Shown here in pieces: positions 1 through 64,000 of a DNA stretch of 64,000 nucleotides. The notes under the pieces are model-generated. The model did not search any database. It was not told the DNA's origin and was given only the letters and a program-made list of their open reading frames with translations. Origin of the DNA: Candidatus Latescibacterota bacterium (GTDB lineage: Bacteria > Latescibacterota > UBA2968 > SICM01); the NCBI GenBank assembly GCA_965217865.1, contig CBDCJO010000002.1:3168001-3232000 (forward strand). Direction: 5' to 3'. Positions within the stretch are counted from its first letter, which is position 1. The number at the start of each line of letters is the position of its first letter. The translations under genes were made by a program, and so were the position numbers.

Positions 1-6
1 GTGCGC

Positions 7-486
7 TCATTGTTCTGGTGCTTGCGACGTTATTTTTCGACCTGAGTTTCGGAGGGGCGGACTTGGTACTGGCGGGGTTAGTTCTGGTTGTGGGAGGATT
101 CTCTTTTCTTGGGCTGGGCTTGATCGCGGCCACTGTATCTTCACAACCGGAAACATCGCGCCCTTGGGGTTTGGGACCAGATGCACCGCACAGTGAAATG
201 ATGGGTCACAATAGTTCCGGACGATCCCGTTGACTAGGTCCTGGTTGTATCGATCCAGCGTGGCGGGGCGGTTTGCGACCTCCGCCATACCCTCGCCGGT
301 TTCTTCGAATCCCAGCACAATGAAACCACCACCGTGATTCGCAAGGGCCAGGGCCGCTTTCGCGAAAGTTGCTTTATCGTTGTTATCACCTTTCAGGTCG
401 AGCCAGTTCTTTACCTCCAAATCGAGGTCCTCACGAAGGTCGACAAGCAGATCTGCAAGGCGTTCAGAGGTGATTTCTAGAGGCAT
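7..486 (-). pseudogene. AlbA_2/Schlafen-type ATP/DNA-binding domain protein, N-terminal part only; ORF runs into unrelated sequence near 135
   Basis: EDLDLEVKNWL...KAALALANHGGGFIVLGF AlbA_2 motifs; the tail after VVKI is non-homologous and proline-rich. GTTAGC lies just before the ATG on the minus strand (possible attC 3' end). Confidence 0.8.
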
Positions 487-523
487 TTCGTAAGCTAACC
501 ATTAAGCACAGCACCCCAAAGTA

Positions 524-680
524 GCGTGCGTGTCTGCGACGTGGATTTGAATCGCTTACCACCAGGAGGACCCTGATATGCCGATGAAGAATCCACCCCC
601 ATCGGGGCCTGTCCGTCCGTCACGACTGCCTGGAGCCGCTGGGACTCAGCGTGACGGACGCCGCAAAGAAGCTCGGGAGG
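524..680 (+). pseudogene. higA: higB 3' end plus frameshifted, truncated higA antitoxin 5' end
   Basis: MPMKNPP(+1)HRGLSVRHDCLEPLGLSVTDAAKKLG matches the HigA N-terminus; the second copy at 38.7 kb retains more of HigB (NWRVVFRFEG). Confidence 0.75.
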
Positions 681-681
681 A

Positions 682-1180
682 ATGAGAATGAGAAAGTCTG
701 TCTACGTGATACTGTCGGTTCTGATCGCCGGGATAGCATCGGCGAGGCCCAAGCCGATCGAGATACCGGAAGGTTACGAGCACGACAAGTGGAACACCGC
801 ACCTGACGATGCTATTCGTAAATTCGGGGCATTCACGAGTTCGTTCGACACCGACGACGACGACACGGGCGATGGCGTAAAGGATCTCTGGGGTATTCCC
901 CAGTGGGTCGCCTACCACATGAAAGCGTTTCGAGGCTTGCCGAATACTGGGAACCGGCCGGCTTGGTTCACCGACAACGGACTAAAGAACCAGGGTTTCG
1001 CCCCAACGGACGATACCTATAAATACTCGAAGGCTTTTCGAAAAGCCCATCCCAACTGGTACGTCCGCGGCCACCTCTGTATGAAGCTGCACGCTGCAAG
1101 GATCAGCCCCGAGGCCGAATGGAACACCCATACGATGCTGAACGCTGTGCCCCAGCGCCAGGAGTTCAATGCCGGTATCT
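682..1180 (+). pseudogene. Secreted DNA/RNA non-specific endonuclease (NucA/EndoG-like), 3'-truncated; called ORF extends to 1341 through foreign sequence
   Basis: Signal-peptide-like N-terminus, YVRGHL (DRGH-like) and NAVPQRQEFNAG motifs; homology ends where the opposite-strand HTH fragment begins. Confidence 0.8.
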
Positions 1181-1182
1181 GC

Positions 1183-5080: not shown

Positions 5081-5251
5081 CTAATCGTCTCTCTCGTCCT
5101 GAGTCGTCTTGCCCGATGGGCTTTTTTCAGGCTCATCTCCGCTGCTGTTTTGCACCCACTCGTCCACCTCCGAGAGCCTGAATCGCAGCAACCGTCCCAC
5201 GCGGTGTGCGGGAAGACCCTTCGAGTCGACCCAGCCTTCTCCAACTGCCAT
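5081..5251 (-). pseudogene. Excisionase-like HTH gene with in-frame 60-bp deletion
   Basis: MAVGEGWV^DSKGLPAHRVGRLLRFRLSEVDEWV, compared with the paralogue at 1183-1296. Confidence 0.8.
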
Positions 5252-5483: not shown

Positions 5484-5835
5484 GTTACTCCGGCCAGCAG
5501 CCGGAGACGATCCGGCGCCGTTTGATGCGCGTGGTCTCGACCGTGTAGACCCAGGCGAGCTCGCGGGCACCGTTCACCGCGGGTCCAGCGCAGCCCGGAC
5601 CGGGTCGAAGACCGCCAGGGTCCGGGCCAGGTCGCTTTCATCCACGGCTTCCCGCTCAAGAGCGGGAGCCTCTTCCCGGAGAGCGGTCAGCCGCTGTTCC
5701 CGCGCTTTGGCCACCGTGGCCGCCACGACCTGTTGGTTCATTCCGATGCCGCGGACGTGCTCCACCACTACGGTTTCGATCCGGTGGGCGTTGGGGGACC
5801 TGCCCGGACACGACGACCGGCCTCGTTGCTGGGGG
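5484..5835 (-). pseudogene. Large serine recombinase C-terminal fragment fused to a gamma-glutamylcyclotransferase C-terminal fragment
   Basis: IETVVVEHVRGIG...DLARTLAVFDPV joined to VNGARELAWVYTVETTRIKRRRIVSGCWPE*; paralogues at 37.4-38.5 kb. Confidence 0.7.
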
Positions 5836-5922
5836 GACCTCACCCATCCGCCTTTTTATACTCGCTCCGAAATTATGGAATCCAACCCCCCCTTGGCCCG
5901 GAATCGCTCGCTGAGGCACGGA

Positions 5923-6395: not shown

Positions 6396-6659
6396 GGTCC
6401 GGCTCCAGTGAATACATACCGGGGGACGTTCCCAAACGTCGAACCAGGCTGTTAAATAAAGCCGACGGGAAAAACAGAGAATCAGAGAATCCGGAGGAGA
6501 TATCTCTGCTCAGCGGACGCAACCCCACGGTTGTGCTCGAACACCGGGGGAAACGCTTCGAACCAGAGAATCGGCAGAGAGGGGAAGGAGGTGGCACAAG
6601 TGTTTGTGAATACGACAGAAACGACAAGACCCCGAAGGGTTGCCCCACGGAGTCTTGCG
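6396..6659 (+). repeat. Non-coding element-end repeat, copy A of 5
   Basis: Aligns by eye with 23533-23788, 27020-27386, 37592-37825 and (inverted) 50780-50959. Confidence 0.9.
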
Positions 6660-9100: not shown

Positions 9101-9548
9101 TGTATCTATTCTGAGATAACAAGAGAAAAGCAGATAAAGGTCCAAGCAAGATTCAGGCAGCCTTTTTGATGGTCTGGGATGTTCTTTGCCGATTGATTTC
9201 TATGCGGCGCTGCCGAGCCTCCTCCTTTCGATCTTGTCGGTGGTGAAGCATCTTTTGATGCTGGCCTTTATGCCTCTGATGAGGCGTGACATACTGTATT
9301 GCCCCGTGATAGCTGTTCATGGTTGTAACTGTGGACGAAGGAAGCGATCAGGCCTTCCAGTTGATGGAATGTGAAGATGTCCTGGAAGCGCAGCCAGTCG
9401 TATTTGAATGTCCGGAAAAAGGCTTCGATCCAGGCGTTGTCCGTGGGTGTTTGATATCGGGCAAACAACTGCGAGATGCCCAGGTCCTTGAAGAACTGGG
9501 CCATCGATTTGGCCTTCATCCGTGGTCCGTGATCTGAGAGGGCTGTCA
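9101..9548 (-). mobile_element. IS3-family element type A, diverged 3' fragment
   Basis: Begins TGTATCTATTCTGAGAT like the full copies; carries several substitutions and an indel. Confidence 0.9.
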
Positions 9549-9690
9549 TGCGTGCGGTTGAAGGTGCTTTCTCAACACCTTAACAGTAAGCACATGGCGC
9601 CACAAGAGTTTGAAGAACGGATCGAGGTTCTCTAAAGGAGTCGGCGGCCTTGACTGGCACGTTGTTCGTATGAAATTTTGAGGGTTCAAA

Positions 9691-9948
9691 ATGCCAAGCA
9701 CATGGGATGAAGCGGTCTATAACATAATTGCAGCTCATAGTGGTGTTATTTCCTTACAGGAAATCTACCAAGACATGAAAAATCATCCGCTCGTAACGCC
9801 GTATCATCGGGAGCCATGGCAACCTGGCAAACAACCGCGCTGTGAGTGCTGGATAAGGCGGTCTTTAACAAATCTCACCCAAAGCGGTCAGGTGCGGCGC
9901 GCCGAAAAAGGTCTCTATATAGTGGCGAGGCCCGGCGTCCCTCTTTAG
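9691..9948 (+). CDS. Small hypothetical protein, possibly winged-helix
   Basis: RBS-like GAGG; intact 85-aa ORF. Confidence 0.55.
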   Translation: MPSTWDEAVYNIIAAHSGVISLQEIYQDMKNHPLVTPYHREPWQPGKQPRCECWIRRSLTNLTQSGQVRRAEKGLYIVARPGVPL

Positions 9949-10248
9949 GGAAAGCCGGTGACGCTGAGGCCATAGGTTTCGGCGAGTAAGCGGGAGACGT
10001 TTGGCGCATCCATGCCATACAACCGCATCACGGTGTTGGCAAAAGGGGCGGCGAGCAGACAAGTCGATGCCCACATTCGGACCTGCTCATCGGTCAAGCC
10101 TGGGGGGATCAGGAGAGCTTGGATGTCGCGTTGCGCCGCTTGCTGCTCGTCGAATGAAGCTATCTCGTCTTCTCTGCCGAGGGACCGCATATAACCCCCC
10201 CCTAATGGCGACTTGCTAGTTCCCCTGGGTCCGTTCGCTTAACCCAGT

Positions 10249-10740: not shown

Positions 10741-11194
10741 GGTTGCCCTCTTAAAGGTAAGGAGGAGTTATGACATTTATTGAATTGCTTGATTCGGAAA
10801 GTGATTTATTGTGGACGTTTGCCTTCCCTTGTTTCATGGGCCTGATTGTTTTCTGCATCTGGATTTTTTTCGGTGCTCCGTGTCGCGAACCAATAGGACA
10901 CGACTGCGGAACTAATGGGCAAAATCGAAAGGAACAAGTCAATAGCCAATCTGGGTTTATTGCACCACAAAAAAGCAGAAGAATTAGACAGGGCCCCATA
11001 ACGAATAGAAAAAACGCAGCGGCATAGGTTACTCAGACTCGGACAATGCTTCGTCTTTCTTTGATGTCCATGCGCGTTCCCTCAGGGCTTGTAAGGTGAA
11101 AATTCCCATCCAGCAACGCTCAGGCGGGAAAGATACTCGTCTTTCATGAAGGACATTATACCAGCCTTGGCGTTGGTTGGGTTGATGTGGCCGC

Positions 11195-11548
11195 TCAGAA
11201 ACGACGCCAAGGCGAATTTATACAGGACCATTCTCTCTGGTGGCGGGTTTTCCCTCGGAGATCGATTCCGGCCACCATGGCACCCTTCATCGCGGCATGC
11301 CTTTTTTTCCAAGTCATTCCCGTATAAGTGCCCAGGAAAGCGAACCGCACGCCTGCTCGCTGATCTAGACTCAAGGAGGCATCATCTACAGGGGTCTTTT
11401 TCATGGTTAACAAGACACCCAACACCACGCTTGGAAAAGTCATATTCTCGAAAATTTCAGCCTCTATCTCTTTCTGTGTTGGTCGGCTTTCGGACATTGC
11501 GCTTGGTGGAACCAATAGCAGCAAAACAAGAACGAGCCTCGGTGTCAT
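11195..11548 (-). CDS. Hypothetical secreted protein
   Basis: GAGGAG RBS and MTPRLVLVLLLLVPPSA signal peptide. Confidence 0.55.
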   Translation of the reverse strand: MTPRLVLVLLLLVPPSAMSESRPTQKEIEAEIFENMTFPSVVLGVLLTMKKTPVDDASLSLDQRAGVRFAFLGTYTGMTWKKRHAAMKGAMVAGIDLRGKTRHQREWSCINSPWRRF

Positions 11549-11577
11549 GGTGTATCTCTCCTCGTGAAGGTTAAGCC

Positions 11578-11853
11578 ATGTTGGGTAAAGATGCGAAATG
11601 CTCTTATTGTGACTCACCCGGAGGGGAAAAGACACTAAAAAACCAGGTGTGCATGCCACTTGGTGGACGTGTGCAATGTATTGACTTCTGTTTTCACCAC
11701 ATCGTTGCCGCCTTAAATGCTGGTGGAATCCGGACCGTAGCCAGTTGTTGTGGCCATGAAAAAATGCACGGCCGTATTGACCTGGAAGATGGAAGGGTAT
11801 TTGTGGTTGTGGATAAGACCGGTCAAGTTGTGTGGCAGAAAGGTGAGCAATAA
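11578..11853 (+). CDS. Phage-type small Cys-rich protein
   Basis: CIDFCFHHIVAALNAGGIRTVASCCGH motif. Confidence 0.6.
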   Translation: MLGKDAKCSYCDSPGGEKTLKNQVCMPLGGRVQCIDFCFHHIVAALNAGGIRTVASCCGHEKMHGRIDLEDGRVFVVVDKTGQVVWQKGEQ

Positions 11854-12089
11854 GCACACCCGTCCTTGCAGGAACCAGAGAGGGACCCATGATACCTCAT
11901 GGCTTTATCCATCCCTGGCACCGCATCGCGGGGCACCGAACCGTCGGCGCCTGTGGCAGGATCTCCAGTCGCCCTACGGGCTCCTTCCGCTCCTGCCACC
12001 CCATCGGACAAACTCAGTGACTTCATCATCCAATCCTCCTCACCCTCTACACTAAACTCAGCCGGGAAACTGTCGAGCTACATTCGAAA

Positions 12090-12353: not shown

Positions 12354-14399
12354 TGCGGTTGTGGACGCCTGGAGCCGCCGCGTCGTTGGCTGGGCGATGG
12401 CGACCCATCTGCGCGCCGAGCTGGTGCTCGAGGCGTTGAATATGGCGCTCTGGCAACGACAGCCGGAAGCCGTCATCCATCACTCCGACCAGGGATGTCA
12501 GTACACCTCCATTGCCTTCGGTCTACGGTGCTGTATCTATTCTGAGATAACAAGAGAAAAGCAGATAAAGGTCCAAGCAAGATTCAGGCAGCCTTGTGGA
12601 TGGTCTGGGATGTTCTTTGCCGATTGATTTCTATGCGGCGCTGCCGAGCCTCCTCCTTTCGACCTTGTCGGTGGTGAAGAATCTTTTGATGCTGGCCTTT
12701 ATGCCTCTGAAGAGGCGTGACATACTGTATTGCCCCGTGATAGCGTTCGGCGTTGTAGCTGTGAATGAAGGAATCAATCAGGCCTTCCAGTTGATGGAAT
12801 GTGAAGATGTCCTGGAAGCGCAGCCAGTCGTATTTGAATGTCCGGAAAAAGGCTTCGATCCAGGCGTTGTCCGTGGGTGTTTGATATCGGGCAAACAGCT
12901 GCGAGATGCCCAGGTCCTTGAAGAATTGGGCCATCGATTTGGCCTTCATCTGAGATCCGTGATCTGAGAGGGCTGTCAAGCTTATGGGCCCAGTGTCCAG
13001 GTCCAGCAGTCCTTCGTTGGCAAGGGCTTGATCCCAGGCCTGTTTGACCTGCTCCACGGTCGCGTTGAAGGAGAGCTTCCATCCTACGATCTTCCTGGAA
13101 TACACGTCGAGAATGGCGGTAAAATACAGGAACAAACCGAAAAATGGGATGTAGGTCAGGTCCCAGCTCCAGACCTGATTAGGACCTTCAGGTTTGACCT
13201 GGGGCTTGCTCTGCTTGACCGGCGTCCTCACCTGTTTCCTGCGTGCCAGACGTTCTTTCCTGGCCTGTCGGTAGAAGCTGGAGGCCGAGGCCTGCACTAC
13301 CCCCTTCTCTGAGGCTACCACCGCCAGCTGATGGGGAGGCAGATCGGCATAGGTCTCATCCCTTAAGAGGGCCGGGATTTGCTCTTTCTCCTCCCTCAGC
13401 AATCCGTGTGGGGCCTCATCAGGGGCGGGCCCGGGCTTCCCATCCAAAAGCGGGTCCGACACCCCATCCAGCTTCTCTTCTCGATCTCGCCGGCTCCAGG
13501 CACAATACCGCTGGAGGGGAAGCTGTAGGATCTCGCAAGAACGGGTGAGTTTCACCCCTTTCTCCTTGGCCCGATGGACCATTAAGAGGATCTCGCGTTT
13601 GACCTCAGCTTGCACCCGGTGGCCCTTGATCGGGCCTGTCAGATCCCATTCACACTTTTTTTTAGCAGGGAAAGTTCCACAGATTGCTCAATGATCGTTT
13701 GCTCCAGGCGTGCCCGCTCTTTGCGCAGCTGCTCCACCTCCTCAGCCGATACCATCGGCTTGCGGCTCCGGCGACCCTTGAACTCCTTGAGGGCCCCGGA
13801 CTTGACCGACTCACGAATACGCTTTAGATCCGAGGAATGAATGCCCCATTTCCGCAGCACCTGTGCAATGGGAACATCTCCCCGGCTGGCTTCAAGGAAA
13901 ATCTCATACTTCTGTTCCGGGGACAAGCTCCTGCGCTTCTTGACCGGGTCACTGTTTGAGGACAGTTGCTCCATCTTTACTCCTCCTGTGAGGTCAGGGA
14001 TATCCCAAAATATGTATCCCTTCTCAACCCTACAGGCAACCAGGATCTTGCTTCGACCTTGCCCCCGTTTTTTCGGGCGATCTCAGACAAAAGATAGTGC
14101 CGCAAGGCCGGTGTCCGGCCTTCTATGGGTTCCACCGGTGATTGCTACGACAACGCGTTATGCGAGAGCTTCTTCGCCACGCTTGAATGCGAACGCCTGG
14201 ATCGCCGAAACTACCGCACACAGGCCGAAGCCCGGATGTCCGTATTTCAATACATCGAGGGCTGGTACAACCTCCATCGGCGACACTCAGCACCCGGATA
14301 TCTCTCTCCAATGAACTTCGAGAAGACCTCCAGCGATGTCGCCCTTGCAGCCGACTGAATCGAAACTGATAAACCGTCCGCTAAACCGGGGTAACTCCA
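12354..14399 (+). mobile_element. IS3-family element type B, 3' part, interrupted by a type A copy
   Basis: Near-identical to 40075-40547; ends AAACCGGGGTAACTCCA. Confidence 0.9.
12532..14096 (-). mobile_element. IS3-family element type A, complete (1565 bp); orfA 13639-13974, orfB 12584-13615; 4-bp TSD GTGC
   Basis: rve motifs WSWDLTY, SDHGSQM, DNAWIEAFF; A8G slippery site; GTGC at 12528-31 and 14097-100. Confidence 0.95.
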
Positions 14400-15920: not shown

Positions 15921-15923
15921 GCT

Positions 15924-49942: not shown

Positions 49943-49978
49943 CTAGCTCTGATTGGCCGGAATGTCGGACCTTATAGA

Positions 49979-50959: not shown

Positions 50960-51147
50960 CTTAGGGCAGTTCACCGGACAGCGGAAGCGGCCATGCGCCC
51001 GGAGCCCGAAATTGGCTACACGGGATTTAAGAGTTGACCGGATACGCCAATTCTCATATATTTTCCGCAGTGTTCGTTTTGTTTCCCTTGAAGAGAGATT
51101 GGTCGAAGACGGCGCACTGTGTCAAATTGTGACATAAGGACTGCAGC

Positions 51148-51846
51148 ATGGACACGCGCGGCACCAGCGAATTTTCCGAGTTGATGACCCGTGCCGGGTT
51201 GGGCATTGAAGAGGCCGCCGGGTTGCTGGGCGTCAATGCCAGGACTGTGCGACGCTACATCAATGGCGAGAGGAAACGTATTGACAGGCTTAAGATCGAC
51301 AAGCTACGAGAGGTTGCCAACGCGCGCTGCCCTGCAGACCGGTCGGAGGGTTTTCGATTTATCGATTTGTTTGCCGGGATCGGCGGACTGCGCCGACCGT
51401 TCGAGGAAATTGGCGGGAGCTGCGTGTTTACGTCAGAGTGGGATCGATTCTGCAAGGATACCTACACCGCAAACTTTCCAGAACCAACTGACAGCGAGCA
51501 CGAGTTTGTCGGCGACATACGACCGTATGCGGCCAAGCCCGAGACCGTACCCTCACACGATGTTTTACTGGCAGGATTTCCGTGCCAACCGTTTTCGATA
51601 GCGGGAGTATCGAAAAAGAACGCACTTGGCCATCCTCATGGATTTCTGTGCGATACACAGGGAACGCTGTTTTACGACCTGGTGAAGATTATCGACTATC
51701 ACCAGACGCCGGCCTTTCTTCTTGAAAATGTCAAGAATCTTGAACGGCACGATAGCGGTCGAACCTTTGCGACAATTATGCACGTCCTTGAAGACGAACT
51801 GGGCTACAGTGTCAGCACACGTGTCGTGAATTCTTCCCAGACGTAG
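51148..51846 (+). pseudogene. dcm: HTH-fused DNA cytosine-5 methyltransferase, 3'-truncated
   Basis: IDLFAGIGG, AGFPCQPFS, LENVKNL; motifs VIII-X missing. Confidence 0.9.
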
Positions 51847-51849
51847 AAG

Positions 51850-52080
51850 CTCGATCTTGCAAGTAAAGTTCGAGTGACAATTGTTGGGGCGAATTGATCT
51901 TGTTCTGGCAGGAAACGACACTGCTTCCGAGTGGTTCGGGCTTGAGATTCAAGCCGTGTACTTTTCGGGGATCGGTATGCATGCCGACTTCGAACGTCTA
52001 CAGAACGATGATGGCTGTCTTCCCCCCGAACCCACAGCGGTCCGGCGCCCCGACTGGCGTTCCTCAAGTGCAAAGCGGTG
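51850..52080 (+). pseudogene. NotI-family restriction endonuclease fragment
   Basis: GRIDLVL...LEIQAVYFSG...RPDWRSSSAKR. Confidence 0.75.
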
Positions 52081-52644
52081 CATGGGCAATCTGCTTTGCG
52101 CAGGGTTGTTCCTCCGATTTCGATCGATTCCCTCCCCGTGCGGGAATATAGCCGTTTGGCCGGAAGCCGTCAACCAGGGAGACTTCAGACCCGAGCGATC
52201 AGAAGCGTGGTGTCTCATGCCTGTTGACACACGTTCCGGTCGCGGCCCGTTGGATGACATCGAGCTCCGCCCCGGCCTTTTCAGGGTCTCCAAAAACTCC
52301 AGAAATCGCCCCGACTTCGCCGTCTCGCCGACCTGAAGCCAGTGACAAAAAGCCGTCTTGCTGATTCCCGCTACCCTTGCAGGCGTCCCTGACTGCAAAT
52401 TCCCCCCAGCTGGGGAAATTCGAATCCCAAAAACGGCTCCTAAGGCCCGATCGCCCGAAGGCGCATCCAACAAAACCCCCCGGAGTCGGAGATGATTACA
52501 CCGTGCCCATTCCTGTCGGTGTGTGCGCCTTCCAGAGCGAAGGCCGAGGGGATCCCGGCGCCGTTGACCAGGCGGTCAGGCTTAACGGCTCCAAGTTCAC
52601 AGGAGAACACTCCGAAGTCCAACTGACTTATCCATCCGAAATGT

Positions 52645-54560
52645 GACCGGAAGTGGGAGAGTTCCTCCGACGGAATGTTGGAGAGAATGCCCGTTTTGTA
52701 GCCTTCATAGTGAAGGTTCTGAATCCATTTTATTACACGTTCATCAACCTCTGACCAGCTTAGAATGTCTTCTTGGATAAGCCGGTTTAGGAGAGCAACA
52801 TCAGGCTCTGCTTCACCATTGGCTAGAATCCTTCCCCAATATTCTTGACCATCAATGCTGCCACGGTCGTAGTCCTCCCTGTATAGGAAGTATAACTCCT
52901 CAAACTTACTATCAGATATTCCACAGGCCTGCCTAACAGCCCGTTGAAGAACTACCTTTCAACGCACATAAACGGAAAAGACGCCTGGAGTGCGGGTCAG
53001 ATAAATCAAGGTAAGGAGATTGAGCAGGAGACGCTGATAAGAGGTTAAAAAGGTGACCGAGGGCAGCAAACGTGATTGTAGGACGAGCAGTAGACGCTGC
53101 AAGGCCTTGGCCAGGTCCTGGAGGGCCTTCGGAGTACCTACGCCCATCACTTTGCGCATGAGCAGAGCCAGGTTGCAGCCCCCGATGTGGATCAGCAAAC
53201 GCTTGAGGATATTGCCGCGGTCTCTCAAGTGCAACCTGCGCATGCCACCGGTATCATATGTGTGAGCGATGGTTCTTTCCACCCGTTCTGCACGACTTCG
53301 GCGCAAGGCCTTGCCGCGATCTCCCTTGATCCGGCGTCGATTCGCATATACCGCGGCCTGCTCATCTCGTCGGCCGTTCCACTTGCGGCGTCCCCGATCC
53401 GGTTCTGAAATGTAACTCCGGATGCCGCCTTGCTTCAGACTGGTCAATACATCGTTGCTATGATATCCTTTGTCCGCAACCACCTCCCGTATACGCTGTC
53501 TGTGCAAACGTTTGGCAGCTTTTTCGTCCTTCGCGACCTGCTTGAGATTGAGCTGCGCCTCGAGCAGCGTCCAGGGCAACGACTCGGTATCTCCTTCATC
53601 TGCTCCCGACAACGCCACTGCCACAATGGCATTGGTGTCCAGATCCACCGCGTGCTCCACCTTGTGCGCCATGTGCGTGCGACCGTCCTTCATCTTAGCG
53701 ATCTTGGCATCCGGGTCGTGCGGGTGCTCCCAGTCCTGGTTCGATCCCTTCTTCGGTCGCTTCTTATCGATCTTGGACAAGTCCTCGCGGGTAGGCGTTT
53801 CAATGCCCGAGGCCTTGGCCAGATTCTCAAGGAATGCCTGGTAGCCTTCACCCGTGTCACGGCGTACAATGCTGCGCATCGCGGCGTTGGCCTCCAGTGT
53901 CGTAGCATCCACGCCCAACGTCTTCCCCTTCACCAGACCCGCTTTGCACAAGACCCTCAGGATCCACTTGAAAACCGCTTCGTGAACTTCCAAGGGAAGC
54001 CGATGCCGGATGCGAGACAGGCTGGAATGATCCGGGGTCTGTTCGTCAAGGGCATACCCCAAAAACCGGCGCAACGTCAGCGAGTCAGATACACGCCATT
54101 CGATCCCACGTTCCGAATCAAGTCCCTCGAAATACCCAATCAAAAGCATCCGAAAATAAACCCCGGGCGGAATGCCCTTGCGACCCATATGAGGAGCGTA
54201 ATACCGCTGGCAAAGCCCCTCGACGAACTCGTCGAAGCCGTTCGCCCCCAATACCTGATTCAGCTTCTCGTAGAACGGATGACCCGGAGATTTCACCAAA
54301 GTGTTCGATGCGATGAACAGGTTTTCCTGTCTCTGTCGGCCTCGTTTTCCCATTGCCATTTGCTCGTCCTCCCTTCTCAGTTTGAACCTGATATATCATA
54401 GGACCAAACCACAAGGAAAGACAACAGTCATCTTGGCATAAACGCACTTTTTCAACAGGCTGCTAAGCCACTGAGCGCGGTCCTGGTTCTGCGGCTTCGA
54501 TATGACACCACCAAAGTCGAAGACTACTGCCCTGATAGACTGATCCGGTCGTTGCGCTTC
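52645..54560 (-). pseudogene. HAD-family phosphatase cassette gene split by IS5-like copy 3 and 3'-truncated
   Basis: AVVFDFGGVISKPQ...QWL^RQACGIS...YDRGSIDGQEYW...KTGILSNI reads in frame once the IS is removed. Confidence 0.8.
52937..54462 (-). mobile_element. IS5/IS1182-like element copy 3; TSD CTAA; transposase 52959-54359
   Basis: CTAA at 52933-36 and 54463-66. Confidence 0.95.
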
Positions 54561-54588
54561 GATAAGCCTCTCCTATGAATTGCGTTGC

Positions 54589-54608
54589 AGCTAACGGTCG
54601 TGTTATGC
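54589..54608 (-). other. Collapsed attC remnant (core sites only)
   Basis: Minus strand GCATAAC-acgacc-GTTAGCT, 21 bp after the hydrolase stop. Confidence 0.65.
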
Positions 54609-54629
54609 GGGTTTCCGAGTTATTTCTCT

Positions 54630-55400
54630 CTAGCCAGCTTGGATCCAACGAGACAGAAATCGACGAACATCGAGTTCCCACAGTTCTACGCCTATTCCGA
54701 AGATACCATGACCTCCGCCAGCAGCGGCGTCTATTGGTGGGTATATTCGTGTCTCTTGAATCTTGCCAAGCCTCGCTAGCTCCGCCCCAAGCACATAAGT
54801 GGGAGTAAGGTGATTGTCATTTTGCGCTTGGATTAGAAAGATGGGAACTTCTGTCTTCCCGATTTCCTTTATCATGCACTCCTGAAGTGCTGGAGCGTCT
54901 GGCCATGTTTGGGATAGACCTGCGAAGCTGATCCCAGCTTTGAACTTCGTTGACCGCCCAGCGGCAAGAACTGTCAAGACTCCACCGAAAGACGAGCCAA
55001 CAATCCCTATGCGTTCATCATCGAGATCTGGATGTGTCCTAAGCCAGTCGAGAGCGGCCAGCGTATCGCCACACTCATCATTCAAAGCTTCGACAAGTTG
55101 GTGTCCCATCTCAGGACTTCCCCAAGGTGCGGAGACACGGTCAAGCCAGTACGGTCCGGGACCATTGTTATAACCCCGTCGAATGGCGGCGAAGACTGCA
55201 AACCCCATCTTATTGAGCGCCTTAATTCCTGGTAGCGAAGCAGGAAGTAAGCCGCCACTGCCGTGGTTGAAAAGTACAACAGGAAATGGCCCCTGGCCTG
55301 CTGGCGGCATCAAGAAACCCGTAAGCTCCAAATCGCCGCTCACGTAAGTCACGGCGTAGGGTTCATACACACTCAAGTCTTGTGAGTCCTTCTTGGCCAT
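54630..55400 (-). CDS. Dienelactone hydrolase / alpha-beta hydrolase cassette gene
   Basis: FNHGSGG, GSSFGG nucleophile elbow, QAQND, GGGHGIF; GAGGA RBS. Confidence 0.9.
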   Translation of the reverse strand: MAKKDSQDLSVYEPYAVTYVSGDLELTGFLMPPAGQGPFPVVLFNHGSGGLLPASLPGIKALNKMGFAVFAAIRRGYNNGPGPYWLDRVSAPWGSPEMGHQLVEALNDECGDTLAALDWLRTHPDLDDERIGIVGSSFGGVLTVLAAGRSTKFKAGISFAGLSQTWPDAPALQECMIKEIGKTEVPIFLIQAQNDNHLTPTYVLGAELARLGKIQETRIYPPIDAAAGGGHGIFGIGVELWELDVRRFLSRWIQAG

Positions 55401-55427
55401 CTTCTGTTTTTCCTCGAAGGAAATGCC

Positions 55428-55509
55428 GCATAACGTTTCCAGCACTCCCGACCCCGCAGGGGTTTTGCGAAGGCCCATCGTGCCGAAGCTCGGGAGTGCT
55501 GTGTTAGAA
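55428..55509 (-). other. Integron attC site (82 bp)
   Basis: Minus strand TTCTAAC-a-CAGCACTCCCGA...TCGGGAGTGCTG-gaaac-GTTATGC. Confidence 0.85.
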
Positions 55510-55532
55510 GAAGGGCTGCCTCAGTCGTTCCA

Positions 55533-56055
55533 CTATTCCTTGCAGGCAATGGCAGAAACCCAGGTTTGAGCGAACATGCTTCCTTCTTCGAGACTCCACT
55601 CCCGCAATACTCTGGCGGATCGCTTGTCGCCCTCTCGGTCGAGCTGCTCGGCCAGGTATTCGCCTATGGATTGCAACGAAGAGTAGCACTCGTACCGAGC
55701 GTTCATTCGAATGGAACCGAAACCTGCAGTAGCGAGGTGTATTCCAAGCTTTCTTCCTGCCTTGACATCTCCGCCGTTCTTGGTCTGCAATCTCACGTAG
55801 GATTCTATAGAACGATCTAATTCACGGGATGGTGGAGTTAGGACGAATCCTCCCCAATCTGGACTACAGATTCCCGCGAATCCGCCGGGCTTCAAGACTC
55901 TATGAAACTCACGTATGGCACGAATGGGATCCGAAAGGTGCTCCATTAGCGCATGGCAGAACAGTCGATCAAACTCAGAATCATTGAACGGAAGAGAGTA
56001 GCAATCTGCAGTTCTGAAACGAACGTTTTCGATTTTGCAGCCATTAGCCGCGAAT
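55533..56055 (-). pseudogene. Class I SAM methyltransferase cassette gene, 5'-truncated
   Basis: ADCYSLPFNDSEFD..HALMEHL...RVLKPGG; motif I region largely missing. Confidence 0.8.
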
Positions 56056-56348
56056 GCGCCGGAGCCGCAGCCCGGCGTGTTATGGGAAGTGCCTGGCACT
56101 TAGAATCTATCCGACCACCATATGTATCCGATTGTCTTCGGAAAAAGAGTTGTCAGGACTGGAATCGCGCCTGGCGAGATTTCGACTTCTGGACACTTTG
56201 CCACTTCCTTTACAGAGCGATAACCCAGAACCAGCTGTGCCAGAATCATTTGAGGAATCCTGACCCTTAACACAACTCGCGATGATGGTGGATCAATCGT
56301 CTTAACCCTGCCAGCGGCGGGAGCTTCGGGTGGTATAGAAGGAGAAAG

Positions 56349-56855
56349 ATGCCTAACACTGAAATAGCTATTTTCATCAGTGCGCTTTCCCTTGCCATGG
56401 CAGGACTGTCGCTTGGTTGGAATATTTACAGAGACATAGTCCTCAAGCCTCGCGTAAGAGTCACTGCCATCATAGGCCCTATAATCGCAGCAGGAGTTAA
56501 AGGCGCAGGCCCTACGTATATCTGCATTAATGCCGTAAATTGTGGTCCTGGCAACACCACTCTCTCCCTTATTATTCTAAAGAAAACCTCTCTTTTTAAG
56601 TGGCTGGCACGGAAGTAGGAATCCGGATTTGTTATTCCCGACTATAAGAATCCAGCGAGTGGAAAACTTCCCTGTGAGCTTGGAGTTGGCGAACGGACTT
56701 CTTTACTTTTTCCCTATGATTCGGAATGTTTTCTAAAAGATAACATGTCTCACATTGGCATATCAGACACGTTTGGACGCACTCATTGGATGAAGACCAG
56801 TCAAGTAAAAAAGATGAATGCTCGTTGGCGCAACGAGTTTAAGGTCAGCACATAA
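56349..56855 (+). pseudogene. Hypothetical membrane-anchored protein with in-frame TAG at 56616
   Basis: AAGGAG RBS, N-terminal TM; the frame stays open 78 codons past the TAG. Confidence 0.7.
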
Positions 56856-57111
56856 AAACGCATCAAACCGCCAAGTTGGCGAAGCCCTTTTCCCTTTGTG
56901 GCCGGTTTGTTGTCTTGGAAGACGTGGGAGAATGGGCAGACGGAATTGGAGGAAGCATGATGAGTGTGGAGCACCGGGATCCCTGGCGTGCACATCGGGC
57001 CTCTGCGGGAGGATACCGTGCAAATGATCGAGGTGCTGAGGACTGGTGGGGATGCTGATGCTCCTCTCGGCGTCTCGAGTTATATGGAACAAAAAACGGT
57101 CGGAATAACAA

Positions 57112-59094
57112 ATGATACTTCCAGACAACGAAACTAGAGTCGACCTGCTCAACAACGAAGCCATTGCTACAACGATTGTGAGATTGCTCAGAGACCGGCC
57201 CGATCAGCCGGTATCCGTAGGTGTGCATGGCGACTGGGGGGCCGGAAAATCCAGCGTGCTGGAGATGATCGAAGCCGGGCTTGAAGGCGAAGAGAAAGTT
57301 TTGTGCCTCAAGTTCAATGGCTGGCGGTTCCAGGGATTCGAGGACGCCAAAATCGCCCTTATAGAGGACATCGTTACGGGGCTTATCGAAAAGCGTCCTG
57401 CTCTCAAAAAGGCAGAGGACGCTGTCAAGGACATTCTACGTCGGATCGACTGGCTCAAAGCTGCGAAGAAGGTAGGCGGTCTCGCCTTCACGGCCTTCTC
57501 CGGTATCCCCTCTCCCGATCAGGTCCAGTCCATTGTCGGAACATTGGAAGGATTCCTTGGTGATCCGACAAAACTCGCGACCAAAGACAATATCCAAACA
57601 GCCATCGACGGTGTGCGGAGCTTGCTGAAGCCGAAGGAGGAAGGTGATCTGACAAATGTGCCCGAAGAAATCAATGGCTTCCGGAATGCGTTTGACGATC
57701 TACTTGAGAAGGCTGGTGTCGAGCAGTTGGTAGTCCTCATAGACGATTTAGACCGTTGCCTTCCAGATACTGCCATAGAGACGCTCGAAGCAGTGCGCCT
57801 CTTCGTGTTCACGTCTCGCACTGCCTTTGTTGTCGCTGCCGATGAAGCGATGATTGAATACGCGGTACGCAAACACTTTCCCGATCTACCAGACACGACC
57901 GGACCGCAGACCTACGCGCGGAACTATCTTGAGAAGCTCATTCAAGTTCCGTTCCGCATACCGGCACTCGGCGATACCGAGACGCGCATCTATATCACGC
58001 TACTTCTAATCGGGGCGGAGTTGGGCGAGGACGATCCCGCATTCAGTACATTGATCGCCGCCGCGCGAGAGCGGCTGAAGCGGCCATGGATAGCTAGCGC
58101 TCTCGATGCTACGGCGGTGAATACCGCGCTCGGCGAAAATGCCTCCAGTGCCACCAGGGCACTGGCTCTCAGTGATCAAATCGGTCCGATCCTGAGCAGT
58201 GGGACTAAGGGTAACCCGCGCCAGATTAAGCGGTTCCTCAACACTCTGGTGCTGAGGCAACAAACGGCCGAGGCGCGAGGGTTCGGTGACGATGTGAAGC
58301 TTCCGGTTCTCGCCAAACTCATGCTGGCCGAACGGTTCCTACCACACTTGTTCGATCAGATCGCAGTCGCCGCAGCTGCGGCACCCGATGGTAAGTGTTC
58401 CGACTTGGCCGCACTGGAGGAGATCGCGAGCGAGGACGAAACAGCAAAGCGGAAGGGCAAACCGAAGAAATGTGCGACCTCAAGAGCCGACGATGGATTC
58501 AAGACATCGGCGAAATTGAAGGTCGCCGGTGCCGCGGAAAGCACGTTACTGGATGAGTGGCGATCTTCCCTGGCGATTATGGCTTGGGCGTCCGTCCGAA
58601 CGCTGCTTGGCGACGAAGATCTCCGCCCCTACCTCTTCGTTGCCAAGGACCGAAAAGATTATTTCGGGGCAGCATCGGCACTTGGTCACTTAGCGGAGGT
58701 TGTGGAACAACTCTTGGGCGGCAAATTCGCGGTTCAGGGCCTGGAAGCCGACCTTGGACGGCTCGCCCCGCCGGAAGCGGCTCAGGTGTTCGATGCTGTG
58801 CGCGGACGGATAGTTGGCAGCGATAGCTTCGATACCGAACCGCCTGGTGCTGCCGGCCTCAGCGTGCTTGTCAAAGCGCATCCGCTACTCCAACGCAATC
58901 TGGTCGAGTTCCTCGAAGCTCTTCCACGTGATCGGCTGGGTCCTTGGGCTTGCAAGGGCTGGGAAGGCGTGCTCAAGGAACCCGAAGAGTTTGAGCGCTT
59001 CGATAGCATCCTCGAAGTCTGGACCAAGGGGGGTAGCGAAATGCTTAAAACCACTGCCAGGAGTGTCCTACGCACCCGGAAACGGAGCCGGTGA
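57112..59094 (+). CDS. qatA: KAP-family P-loop NTPase, Qat system QatA
   Basis: GDWGAGKS, LIDDLDRCLP, YLEKLIQVPF, NPRQIKRFLN; followed by a qatB-like gene. Confidence 0.9.
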   Translation: MILPDNETRVDLLNNEAIATTIVRLLRDRPDQPVSVGVHGDWGAGKSSVLEMIEAGLEGEEKVLCLKFNGWRFQGFEDAKIALIEDIVTGLIEKRPALKKAEDAVKDILRRIDWLKAAKKVGGLAFTAFSGIPSPDQVQSIVGTLEGFLGDPTKLATKDNIQTAIDGVRSLLKPKEEGDLTNVPEEINGFRNAFDDLLEKAGVEQLVVLIDDLDRCLPDTAIETLEAVRLFVFTSRTAFVVAADEAMIEYAVRKHFPDLPDTTGPQTYARNYLEKLIQVPFRIPALGDTETRIYITLLLIGAELGEDDPAFSTLIAAARERLKRPWIASALDATAVNTALGENASSATRALALSDQIGPILSSGTKGNPRQIKRFLNTLVLRQQTAEARGFGDDVKLPVLAKLMLAERFLPHLFDQIAVAAAAAPDGKCSDLAALEEIASEDETAKRKGKPKKCATSRADDGFKTSAKLKVAGAAESTLLDEWRSSLAIMAWASVRTLLGDEDLRPYLFVAKDRKDYFGAASALGHLAEVVEQLLGGKFAVQGLEADLGRLAPPEAAQVFDAVRGRIVGSDSFDTEPPGAAGLSVLVKAHPLLQRNLVEFLEALPRDRLGPWACKGWEGVLKEPEEFERFDSILEVWTKGGSEMLKTTARSVLRTRKRSR

Positions 59095-59455
59095 TGGGAA
59101 CTTCCAGCACATTCTACGGCCAACCCGGTAGTACACCCCTCGTGCCGAGCTGGTTGGGCGACGAAAATTCTACGGCCGAAGTACCTGATGGGACGGAATC
59201 GGATCAACAGCCTCCAGCAAGCACACCAGTTCCGCCAATAGCCGATCCGACCCGCTTCTCGGCGGCACGTAATAACTTTCCCCGGTTTGCGAGCTCCGGC
59301 GGAACCGACCGCCGGAGTCTCGGCCGGGTTGTGTCCCACTATGTCGGCTCCTCCACCGGAGGAACTCGGACCGCTGCCGTCAGGATGGGATCGTCCCGTC
59401 GCACCGGAGCTCGCTTGCTGGGCATACTGTCTGACGTGGCCGCACGGGGTGCCGG
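59091..59455 (+). pseudogene. qatB: QatB 5' part; qatC and qatD absent
   Basis: MGTS...PLVPSWL...RFSAARNNF.RFASSGG...AAVRMGSSR. Confidence 0.75.
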
Positions 59456-59688
59456 TGCGCGACACGTTATCATCGGCCGCTACGGCGCAAACGACCGCGG
59501 TCGTTTGCTGCCGGGCATTCTGGCAGACGTAGCAGCCGAACGCCTTGGAAGACCGTTGTTCTGCGTTGAACCTCTGCCAGGGTTTACATCTCAGTTCAGC
59601 GGCAACGCAGAGCTCCTTCGCTCGGGCCGAGCGCGTCCAGTCTCGCCCTGAAACGCTGTCACTTCGGTTCTATCAGCGGCCAACGAGC

Positions 59689-60060
59689 ATGCCGATAAGA
59701 CATCTCGCATTTGATCTTGACGAGACGCTCATCGACACGCGCGATCAGATAGTCGAAAGCATCATGGCTTGCTTGGCGCGGGAGCAACGAACCAAGAACA
59801 CTCGTTCGAGGCTCCACCGGGATGCGCATAGATCTCCAAAGGCCATTCTGGGCGAGTTCGGCATCGCCAGTCTGAAGGCGTACTGGCGCCACCAAAGACC
59901 CAGAGTGTCCAGAGTCCTAGAAGCGCTAGAAGGGAAGTCATCGGACGCGCGCGGCAAGGCGCATGTGCACGTCATTATTCTCGGACTCGATCGGCGGGAG
60001 GATGTGCGAACGGAAAAGGGCCTGTTCGGCTATCCCGACATCAACGGCGAACGCTTTTCG
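59689..60060 (+). pseudogene. HAD hydrolase 5' fragment joined to an MmeI-like type IIG fragment
   Basis: AFDLDETLIDT; SDARGKAHVHVIILGL. Confidence 0.65.
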
Positions 60061-60135
60061 TGCATGGGGGCCGTGTAGCGAGCCAACAAGAGTAGCAGTC
60101 CAAGCCGATGACGGTGGTACATCGGGGCGGATGGG

Positions 60136-60939
60136 ATGGATACGGGATGGAACAAGACGATGCTCCTGGTAAATCAAGTTGAGTTACTGCGCCGGTACAT
60201 TGAGCAATTTCGGAATCAACGACTTGCATTGCCGTTGATGGGCGGGGTATCCGATACCAGTCAGACCTATCGATTCAAATCCCTTCTGCTTCCAGCGCGA
60301 GACATTGCGACAACGATTGCGCAAGCGGACCCCGCTGGAGACAAACTTCCCGACCGCCTACGGGGTTGGAATGTGGATGTTGAGGATGGTTGGGGGAAGG
60401 CCAAGACGGTACATCTGAAAAAACTGCTCGGGATGATCATCCATGTGTACTATCTAAACGTCGGGCAAAACCGCCTCGATATCTCTAATGATTTAGGAGA
60501 ACGGGTGATCGTACCGTACGATTCGTTCCTCGCGCTTGTCCAACGTCTTGTACTGACACCTGAAGACATTTGCCTCGTAATCTGTAGTTTGGCGGAAGAA
60601 AGATTCAAGAGCAGGCAAGCGATACGAGCGTTGAGGTTTGATGTGCCGGGATCGGGCGACCTCTTGCACTGCCTCTGGACGATTGGTAAGTGGCCGGCCC
60701 TAAAGGAGATAATCTGGAGCAGATTCTTCGCCGACCAGAGTTCTACTGTCGATCCCAATTGCAAAACCATCAACGATGTTCCCTTTGGCATGGGTGGCCG
60801 GCATACAGAGTCGGCCATAACGTGGCACATGGGGTGGCGAAGGGATGATGTTTACGCGACCTCGTGGATTGACGTCTCCTGCTTGATCCATGAGATCCGA
60901 GGCTACTTTTGTAATTCAATTCCCCGACGCCGGCCATAA
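60136..60939 (+). CDS. Hypothetical protein
   Basis: 267-aa ORF with globular composition; no motif recognised. Confidence 0.6.
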   Translation: MDTGWNKTMLLVNQVELLRRYIEQFRNQRLALPLMGGVSDTSQTYRFKSLLLPARDIATTIAQADPAGDKLPDRLRGWNVDVEDGWGKAKTVHLKKLLGMIIHVYYLNVGQNRLDISNDLGERVIVPYDSFLALVQRLVLTPEDICLVICSLAEERFKSRQAIRALRFDVPGSGDLLHCLWTIGKWPALKEIIWSRFFADQSSTVDPNCKTINDVPFGMGGRHTESAITWHMGWRRDDVYATSWIDVSCLIHEIRGYFCNSIPRRRP

Positions 60940-61164
60940 CCTTCCTGCAGAAAGTTACGCACTCCCGAGTCAACTGGTTTGGAGTTCTCGACGAGTCCTG
61001 GCGAAGGGCAACGGCGGAACAGGTTCTGAGTGGGCGGTGCTCAACAGCGGTCAGATGCGGTGGATGTTGCGCGGCACCATCACGCAGATATTCAACAACG
61101 TCACGCGGATGCGGTTGGGTTGGCATTAGCTGAGGCCGCGATCTAGTCTTAGTCGCACCGGATT

Positions 61165-62163
61165 GGCGACACGAGAGATATATTTGAAAGTTGTGGATAA
61201 GAAAAACTAAAGAGCGTATCCTTTGATATCCCAAAATATCAAAACGCCCTCATTTGAGGGAGAAAGGACACGCTCTATGGAAGAATATACCTCATTAGAA
61301 GTCGGAAGCATAGTCGAAGATGCAGCGATCGACTCTCTGGAAAACCTGTTGGGGCGAGGTGCCCGGAGAATGCTGCAGGCTGCATTAGAGCATGAAGTGT
61401 CTGAATACGTTAATTGTTACAAAAGCATTTCAGATGAACAGGGCCACCGCCAAGTCGTTCGTAATGGATCTCACAAGCAGCGGGAAGTGACCACCGGCAT
61501 CGGCAAGATTCCGATAAAGCAACCTCGTGTGAATGACCGCAAGGAAGGACAACGGTTCACAAGTGCGATTCTGCCCAAATATGCCCGCCGTTCTCCCAGT
61601 ATCGACACGCTGATCCCAACGCTGTATCTGAAAGGCGCCTCGACATCCTCCTTCTCTGAGGCCCTGGAGGCGATTCTCGGTAAAGGTGCACCGGGTTTAT
61701 CACCGACCAATGTCACCAGGCTGAAGCAAATCTGGGAAGATGAGCATAAGAACTGGAAGCAGCGCGACCTGACCGGAAAACACCACGTGTATGTGTGGGC
61801 GAACGGGATCTATTTCAACGTGCGCCTGGATAAGGATCGTCCCTGTGTGCTCGTGCTGGTCGGTGCAACGGCTGATGGCTGCAAGGAAGTCATCGCTATC
61901 GAGGACGGTCAGCGTGAGAGCAAGCTATCCTGGCAAACCCTGTTGCGGGATCTCAAAGCACGGGGTTTGACGATCGACCCATCCCTGGCCGTAGGAGACG
62001 GTTCTCTGGGCTTCTGGCGGCATTGGAAGAGGAGTACCCCCGGACAAAGCACCAGCGATGTTGGGTCCATAAGACTGCCAACGTGCTGGACAAACTCCCG
62101 AAATCCGTTCAGCCCGACGCTAAGAGGCTGATCCACGAAATGTATCGATCACCGAGCCGTAAA
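61165..62163 (+). mobile_element. IS256-family element, frameshifted and 3'-truncated; its 5' end is repeated at ~62326-62458
   Basis: VRNGS...QPRVNDR...LYLKGAST...WANGIYFNVRL. Confidence 0.9.
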
Positions 62164-62700
62164 CCGTTTCTCAAGTACATCGACGATTGCGTTAATCTGA
62201 GGCACGAATTCTGTCAGAAATAATCTTGTCCAGAAGTCATCCCAAACTTTAGCCATGATTCCATACTCCTTGGTTTGTCAGGTGATGTGGAAAAGGGGGA
62301 TATAGGCTTAAAAGGGAGAGCATCATGACACGAGATATATTTGAAAGTTGTGGATAAGAAAAGCTAAAGAGCTTATCCTTTGATATCCCAAAATATCAAA
62401 CGCCCTCATTTGAGGGAGAAAAGGACACGCTCTATGGAAGAATATACCTCATTAGAAGAGGCCCTGCCGCTTCGGGCATAGTCTTTGATCGCCTGTTGTG
62501 AACCCCGTTGTCAATCGCTTGTGTCCAAACTTACTCTGTCGTTAATGTCGTAGGGCTCACGACTGGCATGGCGTGCTGTATCCTTATTCTGCTCTACGTT
62601 AAGAGACCTGAATGGAATTCCGCATTGCCGATACCTTCACCTATACCGCTCGGTGCATTGCAACGATAATGGTCATGTCCAGAACAAAGGAGGAGAAAGC

Positions 62701-63676
62701 ATGAACGAAAAACCAGTCTGTCCAATCTGGGGCACAAGAGCTTCCGTAAAGTCCATGCCCAATGGTCGCGACGGCGATTCTGTGGATTCGTCGCGCGCTG
62801 GTGGCAAGTATTTCATTGATAGGACTGCATCAGCGATCCTGAAATCATACGATGAACCCCTAAAAGTTACGTCTGACGTCATGGTTGATCGAACAACGAC
62901 GGCTGGGTGTGCAATACCCGGAAGTAAGTACTGATACGATTAAAGTCGTAGAAGGTCGACAAAAATTACCGGTCCATGAGCGTGCGGACATGCTTCTCAG
63001 ATACATTGGACAAACAGTTCTATTCATTGGATGTCCATTTAACTTTTCCAGGAATGAAAGCAGTCATGATTCTATGAAAATGCTGGCGTGGTCAGAATCC
63101 ACTAGAGGAGATGAGATCGAATATTTGCTACGTTACTTGGAGAACCAAGGTTGGCTGGAAGGAACTATCTCTACTAATCAGGACAAACAATTCACCCTTA
63201 CGGTAGAGGGTTACGCCCATCTTGAGGAGCTTGATCACACGGTCACCGTTTCATCGAAAGCCTTCGTGGCGATGTGGTTTGACGACTCTATGGTCGATGC
63301 GTGGGAACAAGGCATCGATCCCGCGGTCAAGGACGCTGGATACGAAGCAATGCGAATCGATTGGAAAGAGCACGTAAATAGGATAGACGATGAGATCATA
63401 GCCGAAATTCGGAGAGCTCGCTTTCTAGTCGCGGACTTCACACAGGGAGAGGTCGGGCCTCGCGGGGGCGTCTATTATGAAGCGGGCTTCGCGTATGGAC
63501 TCGATATTCCAGTGATATTTACTTGTCGGAAGGATGCATTGGAGAAGATCCACTTCGACACACGGCAGTACAATCACATTGTTTGGGAGACACCGGAGGA
63601 ATTGCGGGACAAGCTCGCAAAGCGTATTGGTGCTGTAATCGGAGATGGACCACTCAAGGACAGCGATGAACGGTAA
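62701..63676 (+). pseudogene. Protein with C-terminal nucleoside 2-deoxyribosyltransferase/TIR-like domain; 1-bp frameshift near 62870
   Basis: CPIWG N-terminus; AFVAMWF, VADFT, RGGVYYEAGFAYGL, HFDTRQYNHI. Confidence 0.8.
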
Positions 63677-63774
63677 TGATTGCTGGTGGGATTGGCGGCT
63701 TTACCAACACGATTGCTCGCTTAAGGATTGGTGCGGGTGGTGATGTATTACTTTAGTGGCGAAAGTTGGCGTAC

Positions 63775-64000
63775 GATAAGCGGTGCGAGTATTGCGCTCG
63801 ACGAAACGCAGGGCGTCCTCGATGTCGGCCACGATCCCGCCGTCGAAATCCTTACGGTCCAGGATGTGTACCTTGTCAGTGCCCCTTGCCAGCAGGCAGG
63901 TGATGTAGGCCTGCGGAAAGAAGCGGCGCACGTTCCTGGCGAAGAAGAGCGCTCCCGCGTTTCGGAAGAGCAATGTGCCATCCGCTCTTTCGGCCGCCTC
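63775..64000 (-). pseudogene. Internal fragment of an AlbA/RecG-C-type ATP-binding protein
   Basis: NAGALFF...FFPQAYI.C...GTDK..ILDRKDFDG. Confidence 0.7.

Follow-up and report, generated by a model that had tools for sequence, protein, structure and literature searches.

The DNA stretch analysed here, referred to as the window (64,000 nt; C2:3168001–3232000 of the Candidatus Latescibacterota genome G000, whose two contigs, C1 and C2, total 6.43 Mb), is a patchwork of broken genes that is real and not an artefact. It likely derives from a stack of defence cassettes in tandem, as a block since displaced and eroded; the cassettes would have been inserted at the 3′ end of tRNA-Asn by a large serine recombinase linked to a DUF2924 gene. 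G000 has an estimated completeness of 96.08 % and contamination of 9.3 %. Coordinates without a contig prefix are window positions.

The recombinase element and the array behind tRNA-Asn

The left end of the element is a stretch of ~300 bp located upstream of DUF2924 and the large serine recombinase gene; five copies are found in the window and about 40 in G000. The attachment core is about 7–9 bp long and the recombinase begins about 1 kb inside the element. Core-plus-arm sites number 37 in G000 versus 0–2 in each of the 104 other genomes of the host's class (105 including G000), counted with a pattern that was written from G000 and undercounts divergent variants in relatives. Likewise, there are 9 DUF2924 matches in G000 versus 0–3 in other class members. 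The core is reached by 37 left ends. One of these adjoins tRNA-Asn and one other DNA, and the remaining 35 continue into either of two conserved far arms (R1 in 30 cases); a left end joined to a far arm is the junction expected between neighbours of a tandem array. The core arms are diverse (median 92 % identity, with 3 of 666 pairs identical) and are a family of variants rather than a single clone. Truncations of the arms are concentrated at the core, 6 of 13 by hand count (P about 5e-9). Three recombinase open reading frames (ORFs) are full length and carry a YxRxS motif, the serine of which we take to be the catalytic residue, and many recombinase remnants lack the N-terminal part. An intact recombinase gene is located at C2:134490. 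Parts of the element within the window are as follows.

5577–5843 (−): large serine recombinase fragment, residues 362–450 of 497 (tblastn 86 % to an intact copy)
6443–6659 (−): left end, cut before the attachment core
23533–23795 (−): left end with intact core and arm (23718–23748) joined to an R1 arm, an attP-like junction
27086–27390 (−): left end with intact core and arm (27315–27345) joined to an R1 arm, an attP-like junction
32356–32707 (unstranded): further R2-side remnants
37588–37825 (−): left end, cut before the core
37826–38524 (−): recombinase C-terminus, residues 359–497 (PF13408), and the small ORF that is next in intact elements, joined to a left end
50784–50892 (+): short left-end remnant in opposite orientation
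52076–52391 (unstranded): remnant beyond the core (R2 side, likely the element's right end; likeness of R2 to the right end in the relative G075 judged by eye)

The single tRNA-Asn of G000 (C1:620047), outside the window, is directly followed at its 3′ end by one of the element ends. The end of C1 overlaps the start of C2 by 6.3 kb (C2:1–6322), and the path from tRNA-Asn to C2:457645 holds 16 sites in about 487 kb, with a mean spacing of about 32 kb. Ten of these sites are oriented with the tRNA, the next three are reversed and the last three are again oriented with the tRNA (13/16 one way). The three reversed sites lie between two copies of an IS3-like insertion sequence (IS), IS-A, at C2:231133 and C2:326236, whose target duplications are reciprocally swapped, the sole such pair among the 21 of 41 paired IS-A copies genome-wide that have no target duplication of their own. 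An IS-bounded inversion thus explains the orientation break, and once it is undone all 16 sites point one way.

In the block containing the window (about C2:3.10–3.36 Mb) all six sites, two of them in the window, share one orientation. Several cargo slices of this block are shared with the anchored array at 97–99 % identity, and a 6754-bp repeat (99.87 %) is found both in the block (C2:3289754–3296505) and at the end of C1 (C1:649257–656010). An inversion isoform at this repeat would connect the tRNA-Asn array with the block of the window. The assembly break also sits on this 6.75-kb repeat, with inverted copies 3.3 Mb apart.

Relatives point to the same target. Upstream DNA of at least 1.5 kb is available for 47 homologous recombinase loci. 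In 15 of them a tRNA-Asn lies 1.1–2.3 kb before the recombinase and ends in the same core; 18 have a tRNA of any kind or a tmRNA there. A whole unit of 29.2 kb lies between two cores in G075, with QatA–D as cargo. The element was also considered as a prophage and rejected: terminase- and capsid-like genes do occur in the G075 unit, but they have no match in G000 and adjoin a tyrosine integrase, so that they likely belong to a nested element. With five element ends in 64 kb compared with 29–32 kb per unit, a two- to threefold condensation would follow, and the first-pass annotation was probably right that the window condenses more than 64 kb of donor DNA.

The same repeat-rich texture recurs in several zones of G000, which when drawn by hand amount to 1.54 Mb, ~24 % of the genome. 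A paralogue elsewhere in G000 exists for 55 % of the window (49 % at ≥95 % identity), and 57 non-IS window tiles map to 40 different 20-kb bins; the window is therefore not a stand-alone hotspot of unique donor DNA. The first-pass view of a hotspot stands in that islands, cassettes and IS copies do accumulate here. It also recognized real DNA and its accumulation, and missed the serine-recombinase element that organizes the region. Cover by long ORFs is below 0.55 in 18 of 100 G000 bins versus 1 of 80 in four relatives, which differ in G+C, and the repeat fraction is 7 % in G000 versus 0.7–4.3 % in those relatives (20 × 20 kb samples in both cases). A smaller junkyard with the same element end is present in the relative G011. 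Additionally, a 1084-bp stretch with a HigBA-like pair is 97.3 % identical between G011 (L090:8502–9582) and G000 (C2:2634271–2635354), genomes of two families of the class, and its sequence identity indicates recent transfer.

Under the proposed history, each new cassette would integrate at the tRNA-Asn end and push older ones outward, and successive integrations would leave right-end/core/left-end junctions. The stack, being dispensable, would take up IS copies, integron cassettes and plasmid pieces, and its units would be shortened by short-repeat deletions (slippage or end-joining) and blunt joins. Recombination between IS copies would invert or move blocks, and likely carried the window's block about 3 Mb away. 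A more speculative extension, which we consider doubtful, is that ~37 tRNA-Asn insertions by one cassette system built about a quarter of the chromosome. The junctions would in that case stay substrates for the three intact recombinases and, together with IS recombination and Ku/LigD repair, the zones would still be active, with pieces of defence genes being cut out, duplicated and recombined in them, giving strain-to-strain variation among co-occurring bacteria.

Several observations weigh against a displaced tRNA-Asn array. Two sites have the opposite orientation, a divergent partial one at C2:361124 and one that lies upstream of the tRNA at C1:600807. tRNA-Asn is a single-copy gene in this genome and is missing from the block of the window, so that displacement of the block from the array is something we infer. 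Only 2 window junctions are intact attachment sites, most being deletion or IS scars. Long-ORF cover shows no decay gradient with distance from the tRNA, host-type genes lie within the zones, and 29 of the 47 homologous loci have no tRNA within 2.5 kb. R1, the common far arm, is a putative element end; of the two arms, R2 alone is similar to the right end of the G075 unit, as judged by eye.

An alternative is a multi-targeting recombinase, where the element also inserts at degenerate secondary sites and each zone, the window included, grew in place. The sites are spread over at least seven separate chromosomal parts, and six unrelated flanks meet a far arm ≤5 bp from the core; these flanks may be either secondary targets or the result of deletions. 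However, the 35 of 37 left ends noted above are arm-to-arm junctions and not new targets, and relatives target tRNA-Asn. DUF4368, reported in PMC10083194 as common among multi-targeting large serine recombinases (63 % of that clade), has no match in two intact recombinases (E 0.01). Growth in place is thus unlikely, and a displaced block of the tRNA-Asn stack remains the preferred reading.

Junctions like that at C2:457.4–457.6 kb hold two cores 175 bp apart; others have lost the intervening piece, as if excised. A second DUF2924-recombinase subfamily is found at C2:1831061–1853000 and C2:1882600–1895000, with one copy directly behind tmRNA (C2:1.831 Mb), and carries a 1115-aa primase-like protein and restriction-modification (R-M) cargo. 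Literature on DUF2924 with recombinases was limited to Wolbachia prophage papers in a search whose scope left out most subscription papers and all supplements, and the large serine recombinase tables of PMC10083194 may list the clade. Elsewhere on C2, dnaA (C2:2239766) and parAB (C2:3066536–3068159) are 0.83 Mb apart with a GC-skew minimum near 2.85 Mb between them, which suggests rearrangement around the origin.

Short-repeat deletions and repair genes

Two deletions had been described as lying at short repeats, and both repeats are present:

5227–5233 (unstranded): 7-bp repeat at a 60-bp deletion (paralogue comparison)
24376–25149 (+): truncated IS-A carrying a 44-bp deletion at a GGAT repeat (25067–25070)

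For a genome-wide set, G000 was masked and compared with itself, and indels of 15–5000 bp were collected from collinear paralogue pairs. The 347 pairs gave 172 junctions, 109 of them unique, 93 after removal of high-copy IS and 69 after removal of a further 24 likely miniature inverted-repeat transposable element, IS or tandem cases. The null consisted of simulated deletions in the same parents. The 69 indels are not polarised and some may be insertions. Sixty of them fall within the hand-drawn zones, a circular figure that carries no weight here, as repeats were used to delimit those zones. Microhomology of at least 4 bp is found at 24 of the 69 (null 2.3 %) and of at least 7 bp at 16 (null 0.12 %), while another 24 have 0–1 bp. 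Seven of the indels are inside the window, with 7, 2, 3, 3, 7, 2 and 2 bp of microhomology. In a noisier set of chimeric joins, which takes in ordinary small indels between paralogues, 77 of 257 have at least 4 bp (null 2.1 %). Trimming at short repeats, as first proposed, is thus far above chance, yet repeats of at least 4 bp cover only about a third of resolvable events.

A loss of mutSL or recA had been raised as a possible background to such deletions. MutS, MutL and RecA are all intact and RecJ is likewise in an open frame, so that a mutator (repair-deficient) genome marked by their loss is rejected; according to PMC5426353, RecA-independent deletion at short repeats is ordinary in bacteria. 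Ku and LigD, also raised at that stage, are both present and intact, LigD being 774 aa long, and ComEC is encoded in an open frame.

The short-repeat excess and the many unrelated donors could be read as a generic hotspot, shaped mainly by slippage or microhomology end-joining, in which recombinase elements are just one kind of debris; such decay at hotspots is described in PMC8791490. This leaves the 37 attachment junctions, their common orientation and their spacing unexplained. Neither the 24 of 69 events with 0–1 bp homology nor the 21 of 41 paired IS-A copies without a target duplication fit it, and we judge it improbable.

Ku and LigD could also have acted more directly, by end-joining short environmental DNA (taken up via ComEC) or the cell's own DNA, so that the fragments arrived as fragments. 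Ku is patchy class-wide: no more than 18 of 105 genomes have it, and both same-family genomes searched lack it. Untemplated bases occur at 11 of 119 blunt chimeric joins, where 1.7 would be expected, and at 2 of 24 deletions, where 0.5 would be, a slight excess that weakly hints at end-joining. Non-homologous end-joining (NHEJ) scars in Streptomyces have 1–6 nt of microhomology and inserts of 30–83 bp (PMC5869714). Against capture as the source of the mosaic, longer paralogues of most pieces exist in the same genome, low ORF cover is seen in 0 of 40 sampled bins of two Ku-positive relatives, and the ordinary paralogue indels within the chimeric set bear on its untemplated bases as well. Arrival as fragments would seem quite improbable; for the decay of a tRNA-Asn cassette stack, the preferred reading, end-joining would be one of the trimming routes.

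Gene fragments, insertion sequences and contig support

Three CRISPR-Cas loci have left pieces in the window, as have several R-M systems, Qat, AbiEi, a TonB receptor, and sugar and kinase genes, besides many IS; most of the defence systems met are broken. ORFs of at least 250 aa cover 0.33, 0.45 and 0.53 of three 20-kb parts of the window, compared with a core median of 0.71. Pfam was run on 514 of 561 stop-to-stop frames of at least 60 aa, with repeated IS copies left out, and chosen frames were also scanned with NCBIfam and PADLOC. Profile matches are frequently partial: Cas1c (positions 183–339 of 340), Cas3g (121–563 of 854, frameshifted), dcm (50–256 of 472), NotI-like (108–188 of 238), and likewise GlpD, type I and III methyltransferases and many IS pieces. 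Together with the low long-ORF cover, these bear out the initial description of unrelated gene pieces that abut. There are no Rfam matches and no tRNAs within the window.

524–1181 (+): HigA-like fragment fused to a non-specific endonuclease; second copy at 38733–39113
15818–16530 (+): Cas2 with leader and repeat remnants
16889–20830 (+): TonB-dependent receptor, split by an IS3-like copy and two deletions
21280–22343 (+): type I-C Cas1 C-half, Cas2, leader, and one and a half repeats
22344–23511 (+): slice of a type I R-M operon (hsdM end, TIGR02391, hsdS start); intact copy after a recombinase remnant at C2:3.296–3.307 Mb
44884–46300 (+): type I-G Cas3 fragment, frameshifted
51148–52075 (+): helix-turn-helix–dcm N-half fused to the middle of a NotI-like nuclease, apparently from different R-M systems; join bridged by contigs
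55428–55509 (unstranded): attC-like hairpin between cassette-like genes (z −3.6 and −4.5)
57112–59530 (+): intact QatA and truncated QatB of the Qat anti-phage system; a relative's intact element has QatA–D

Donor gene order had been thought to survive across several gaps. Both termini of the TonB receptor are indeed kept, around the IS, a 39-bp deletion and a deletion of roughly 290 bp; its nearest relatives are in Vicinamibacterales metagenome-assembled genomes (84 % aa), then in Gemmatimonadota and Poribacteria. The hsdM-TIGR02391-hsdS order does not span a gap, being a single contiguous slice of 1168 bp. A donor order of dcm and NotI-like genes is unsupported: vsr follows dcm relatives in 2/2 loci, and a dcm relative is found in 0/5 NotI-like loci (roughly 3 kb fetched per locus). 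The duplicated chimeric junction is genuine, with 524–904 and 38733–39113 being 99.2 % identical.

An attC scan of the window with a loose threshold gave 2 sites on the + strand versus 1–2 in shuffles, which is chance level apart from one clear hairpin. The best match in G000 to TIGR02249 (integron integrase), at C2:1657178–1658351, is split by a frameshift and below cut-off; this integron-like tyrosine integrase adjoins cassette-like genes. Further observations are an open APH(6)-like kinase frame at 25424–26347 (118 bits against a cut-off of 325), putatively a distant relative, a low-GC block (37–43 %) at 32764–35455 with a DegT-type aminotransferase and a broken GlpD-like gene, and a weak match (68 bits) to amino acid-[acyl-carrier-protein] ligases at 49979–50728.

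The full IS copies are listed below. Five have perfect target duplications, of 4 bp each, as first reported, and the sixth does not.

12532–14096 (−): IS3-like IS-A, perfect 4-bp duplication, within an older IS3 fragment
17724–19287 (−): IS-A, perfect 4-bp duplication, within the TonB gene
28553–30078 (−): IS5/IS1182-like IS-B (DUF772), flanks unlike at the fourth base
39278–40547 (+): IS3-like IS-C, perfect 4-bp duplication
48414–49943 (+): IS-B, perfect 4-bp duplication
52937–54462 (−): IS-B, perfect 4-bp duplication; empty site in 4/4 runs compared

Short-read support was taken from assembled contigs rather than raw reads and covers 26.5 of the 64 kb; for each run 32 of >1000 pieces were compared, and joints with sides of <30 letters were ignored. 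The region 54480–61150 is present in six runs (five samples, two studies) with word shares of 0.69–0.99, and one of these runs may itself be the source. Among the matches listed, contigs bridge 9438–10027, 10816–11961, 51084–52105 (dcm/NotI), 54556–56022, 56925–59969 and 60021–61204 with 0 differences. Three others, again among the matches listed, match partly and then diverge near 4456, 51130 and 52391, which hints that structural variants exist or that different organisms carry this DNA. Contig depth is ~11 at 10816–11961 versus ~20 at 57077–61202 in both runs of sample S2, and the former segment is possibly in only part of the population.

That the mosaic is real DNA, as had been argued from the IS copies, is thus confirmed by junctions bridged in short-read contigs of two studies and by the five perfect target duplications. 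A chimeric or strain-mixed assembly, to which the contamination estimate, the break on the 6.7-kb repeat and the two- to threefold difference in contig depth between unique segments of one sample might point, is highly improbable given these zero-difference bridges, paralogues with substitutions and deletions of their own, and an IS pair whose swapped target duplications account for the orientation break.

Relation to known systems

Tandem accretion is a known process, here of unusually large scale; as the mechanism class is already known, the surprise lies in the scale and not in the chemistry. With integrations countable from junctions and decay readable from in-genome paralogues, a single chromosome allows deletion spectra, cargo turnover and the part played by NHEJ to be measured. 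The region also provides a tRNA-Asn-targeting serine recombinase with predicted att sites.

In the staphylococcal oriC environ, tandem staphylococcal cassette chromosome (SCC) elements stack behind orfX and undergo IS-driven deletion and shuffling (PMC3780952, PMC11470126). The likeness includes a large serine recombinase (CcrAB/CcrC in SCC), cassettes arrayed in tandem where a conserved gene (rlmH/orfX in SCC) has its 3′ end, richness in anti-phage systems and later deletion, IS-driven shuffling and inversion. In contrast to SCC, the target here is tRNA-Asn and a single recombinase is preceded by DUF2924. The recombinase scores 154, 117 and 110 bits against Ccr profiles with cut-offs of 900, 900 and 700, the highest being CcrB (154, cut-off 900). 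Owing to the different target and scores far below the Ccr cut-offs, the element is not an SCC member. The accessory region of the oriC environ makes up to 3.4–6.1 % of the genome, whereas here the run is about 0.49 Mb and ~24 % falls in the hand-drawn zones.

The ssrA islands of Dehalococcoides, with the CcrB-family integrase DsiB, are likewise tandem islands behind a tRNA-like gene, with direct repeats and many units without an integration module (PMC3146451). There, the repeats are of 20 bp, all of them lie no more than 100 kb from ssrA, and attL is overlapped by dsiB; here, the core measures about 7–9 bp, the recombinase is about 1 kb inside, the cargo is defence-related and most units have been broken up. 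It is the end of tRNA-Asn, and not ssrA, that the 37 cores match, which places the element outside the ssrA genomic islands as defined by the ssrA target and 20-bp repeat. Accretion of integrative and conjugative, integrative and mobilisable, and cis-mobilisable elements follows a similar course of integration, decay to an att-bounded remnant and integration of the next element at the same site (PMC5704250). Those tandems consist of few elements, and no conjugation or mobilisation module was identified for the element here.

Defence islands have been described as littered hotspots, in which rounds of integration and partial deletion leave defence remnants, and that account leaves open whether they are working stacks of mobile elements or what remains after repeated integration and decay (PMC8791490). 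The window resembles them in its remnants of defence systems. Unlike the islands of that account, its defence systems are mostly broken, and attachment junctions that have been retained make it possible to count the integrations.

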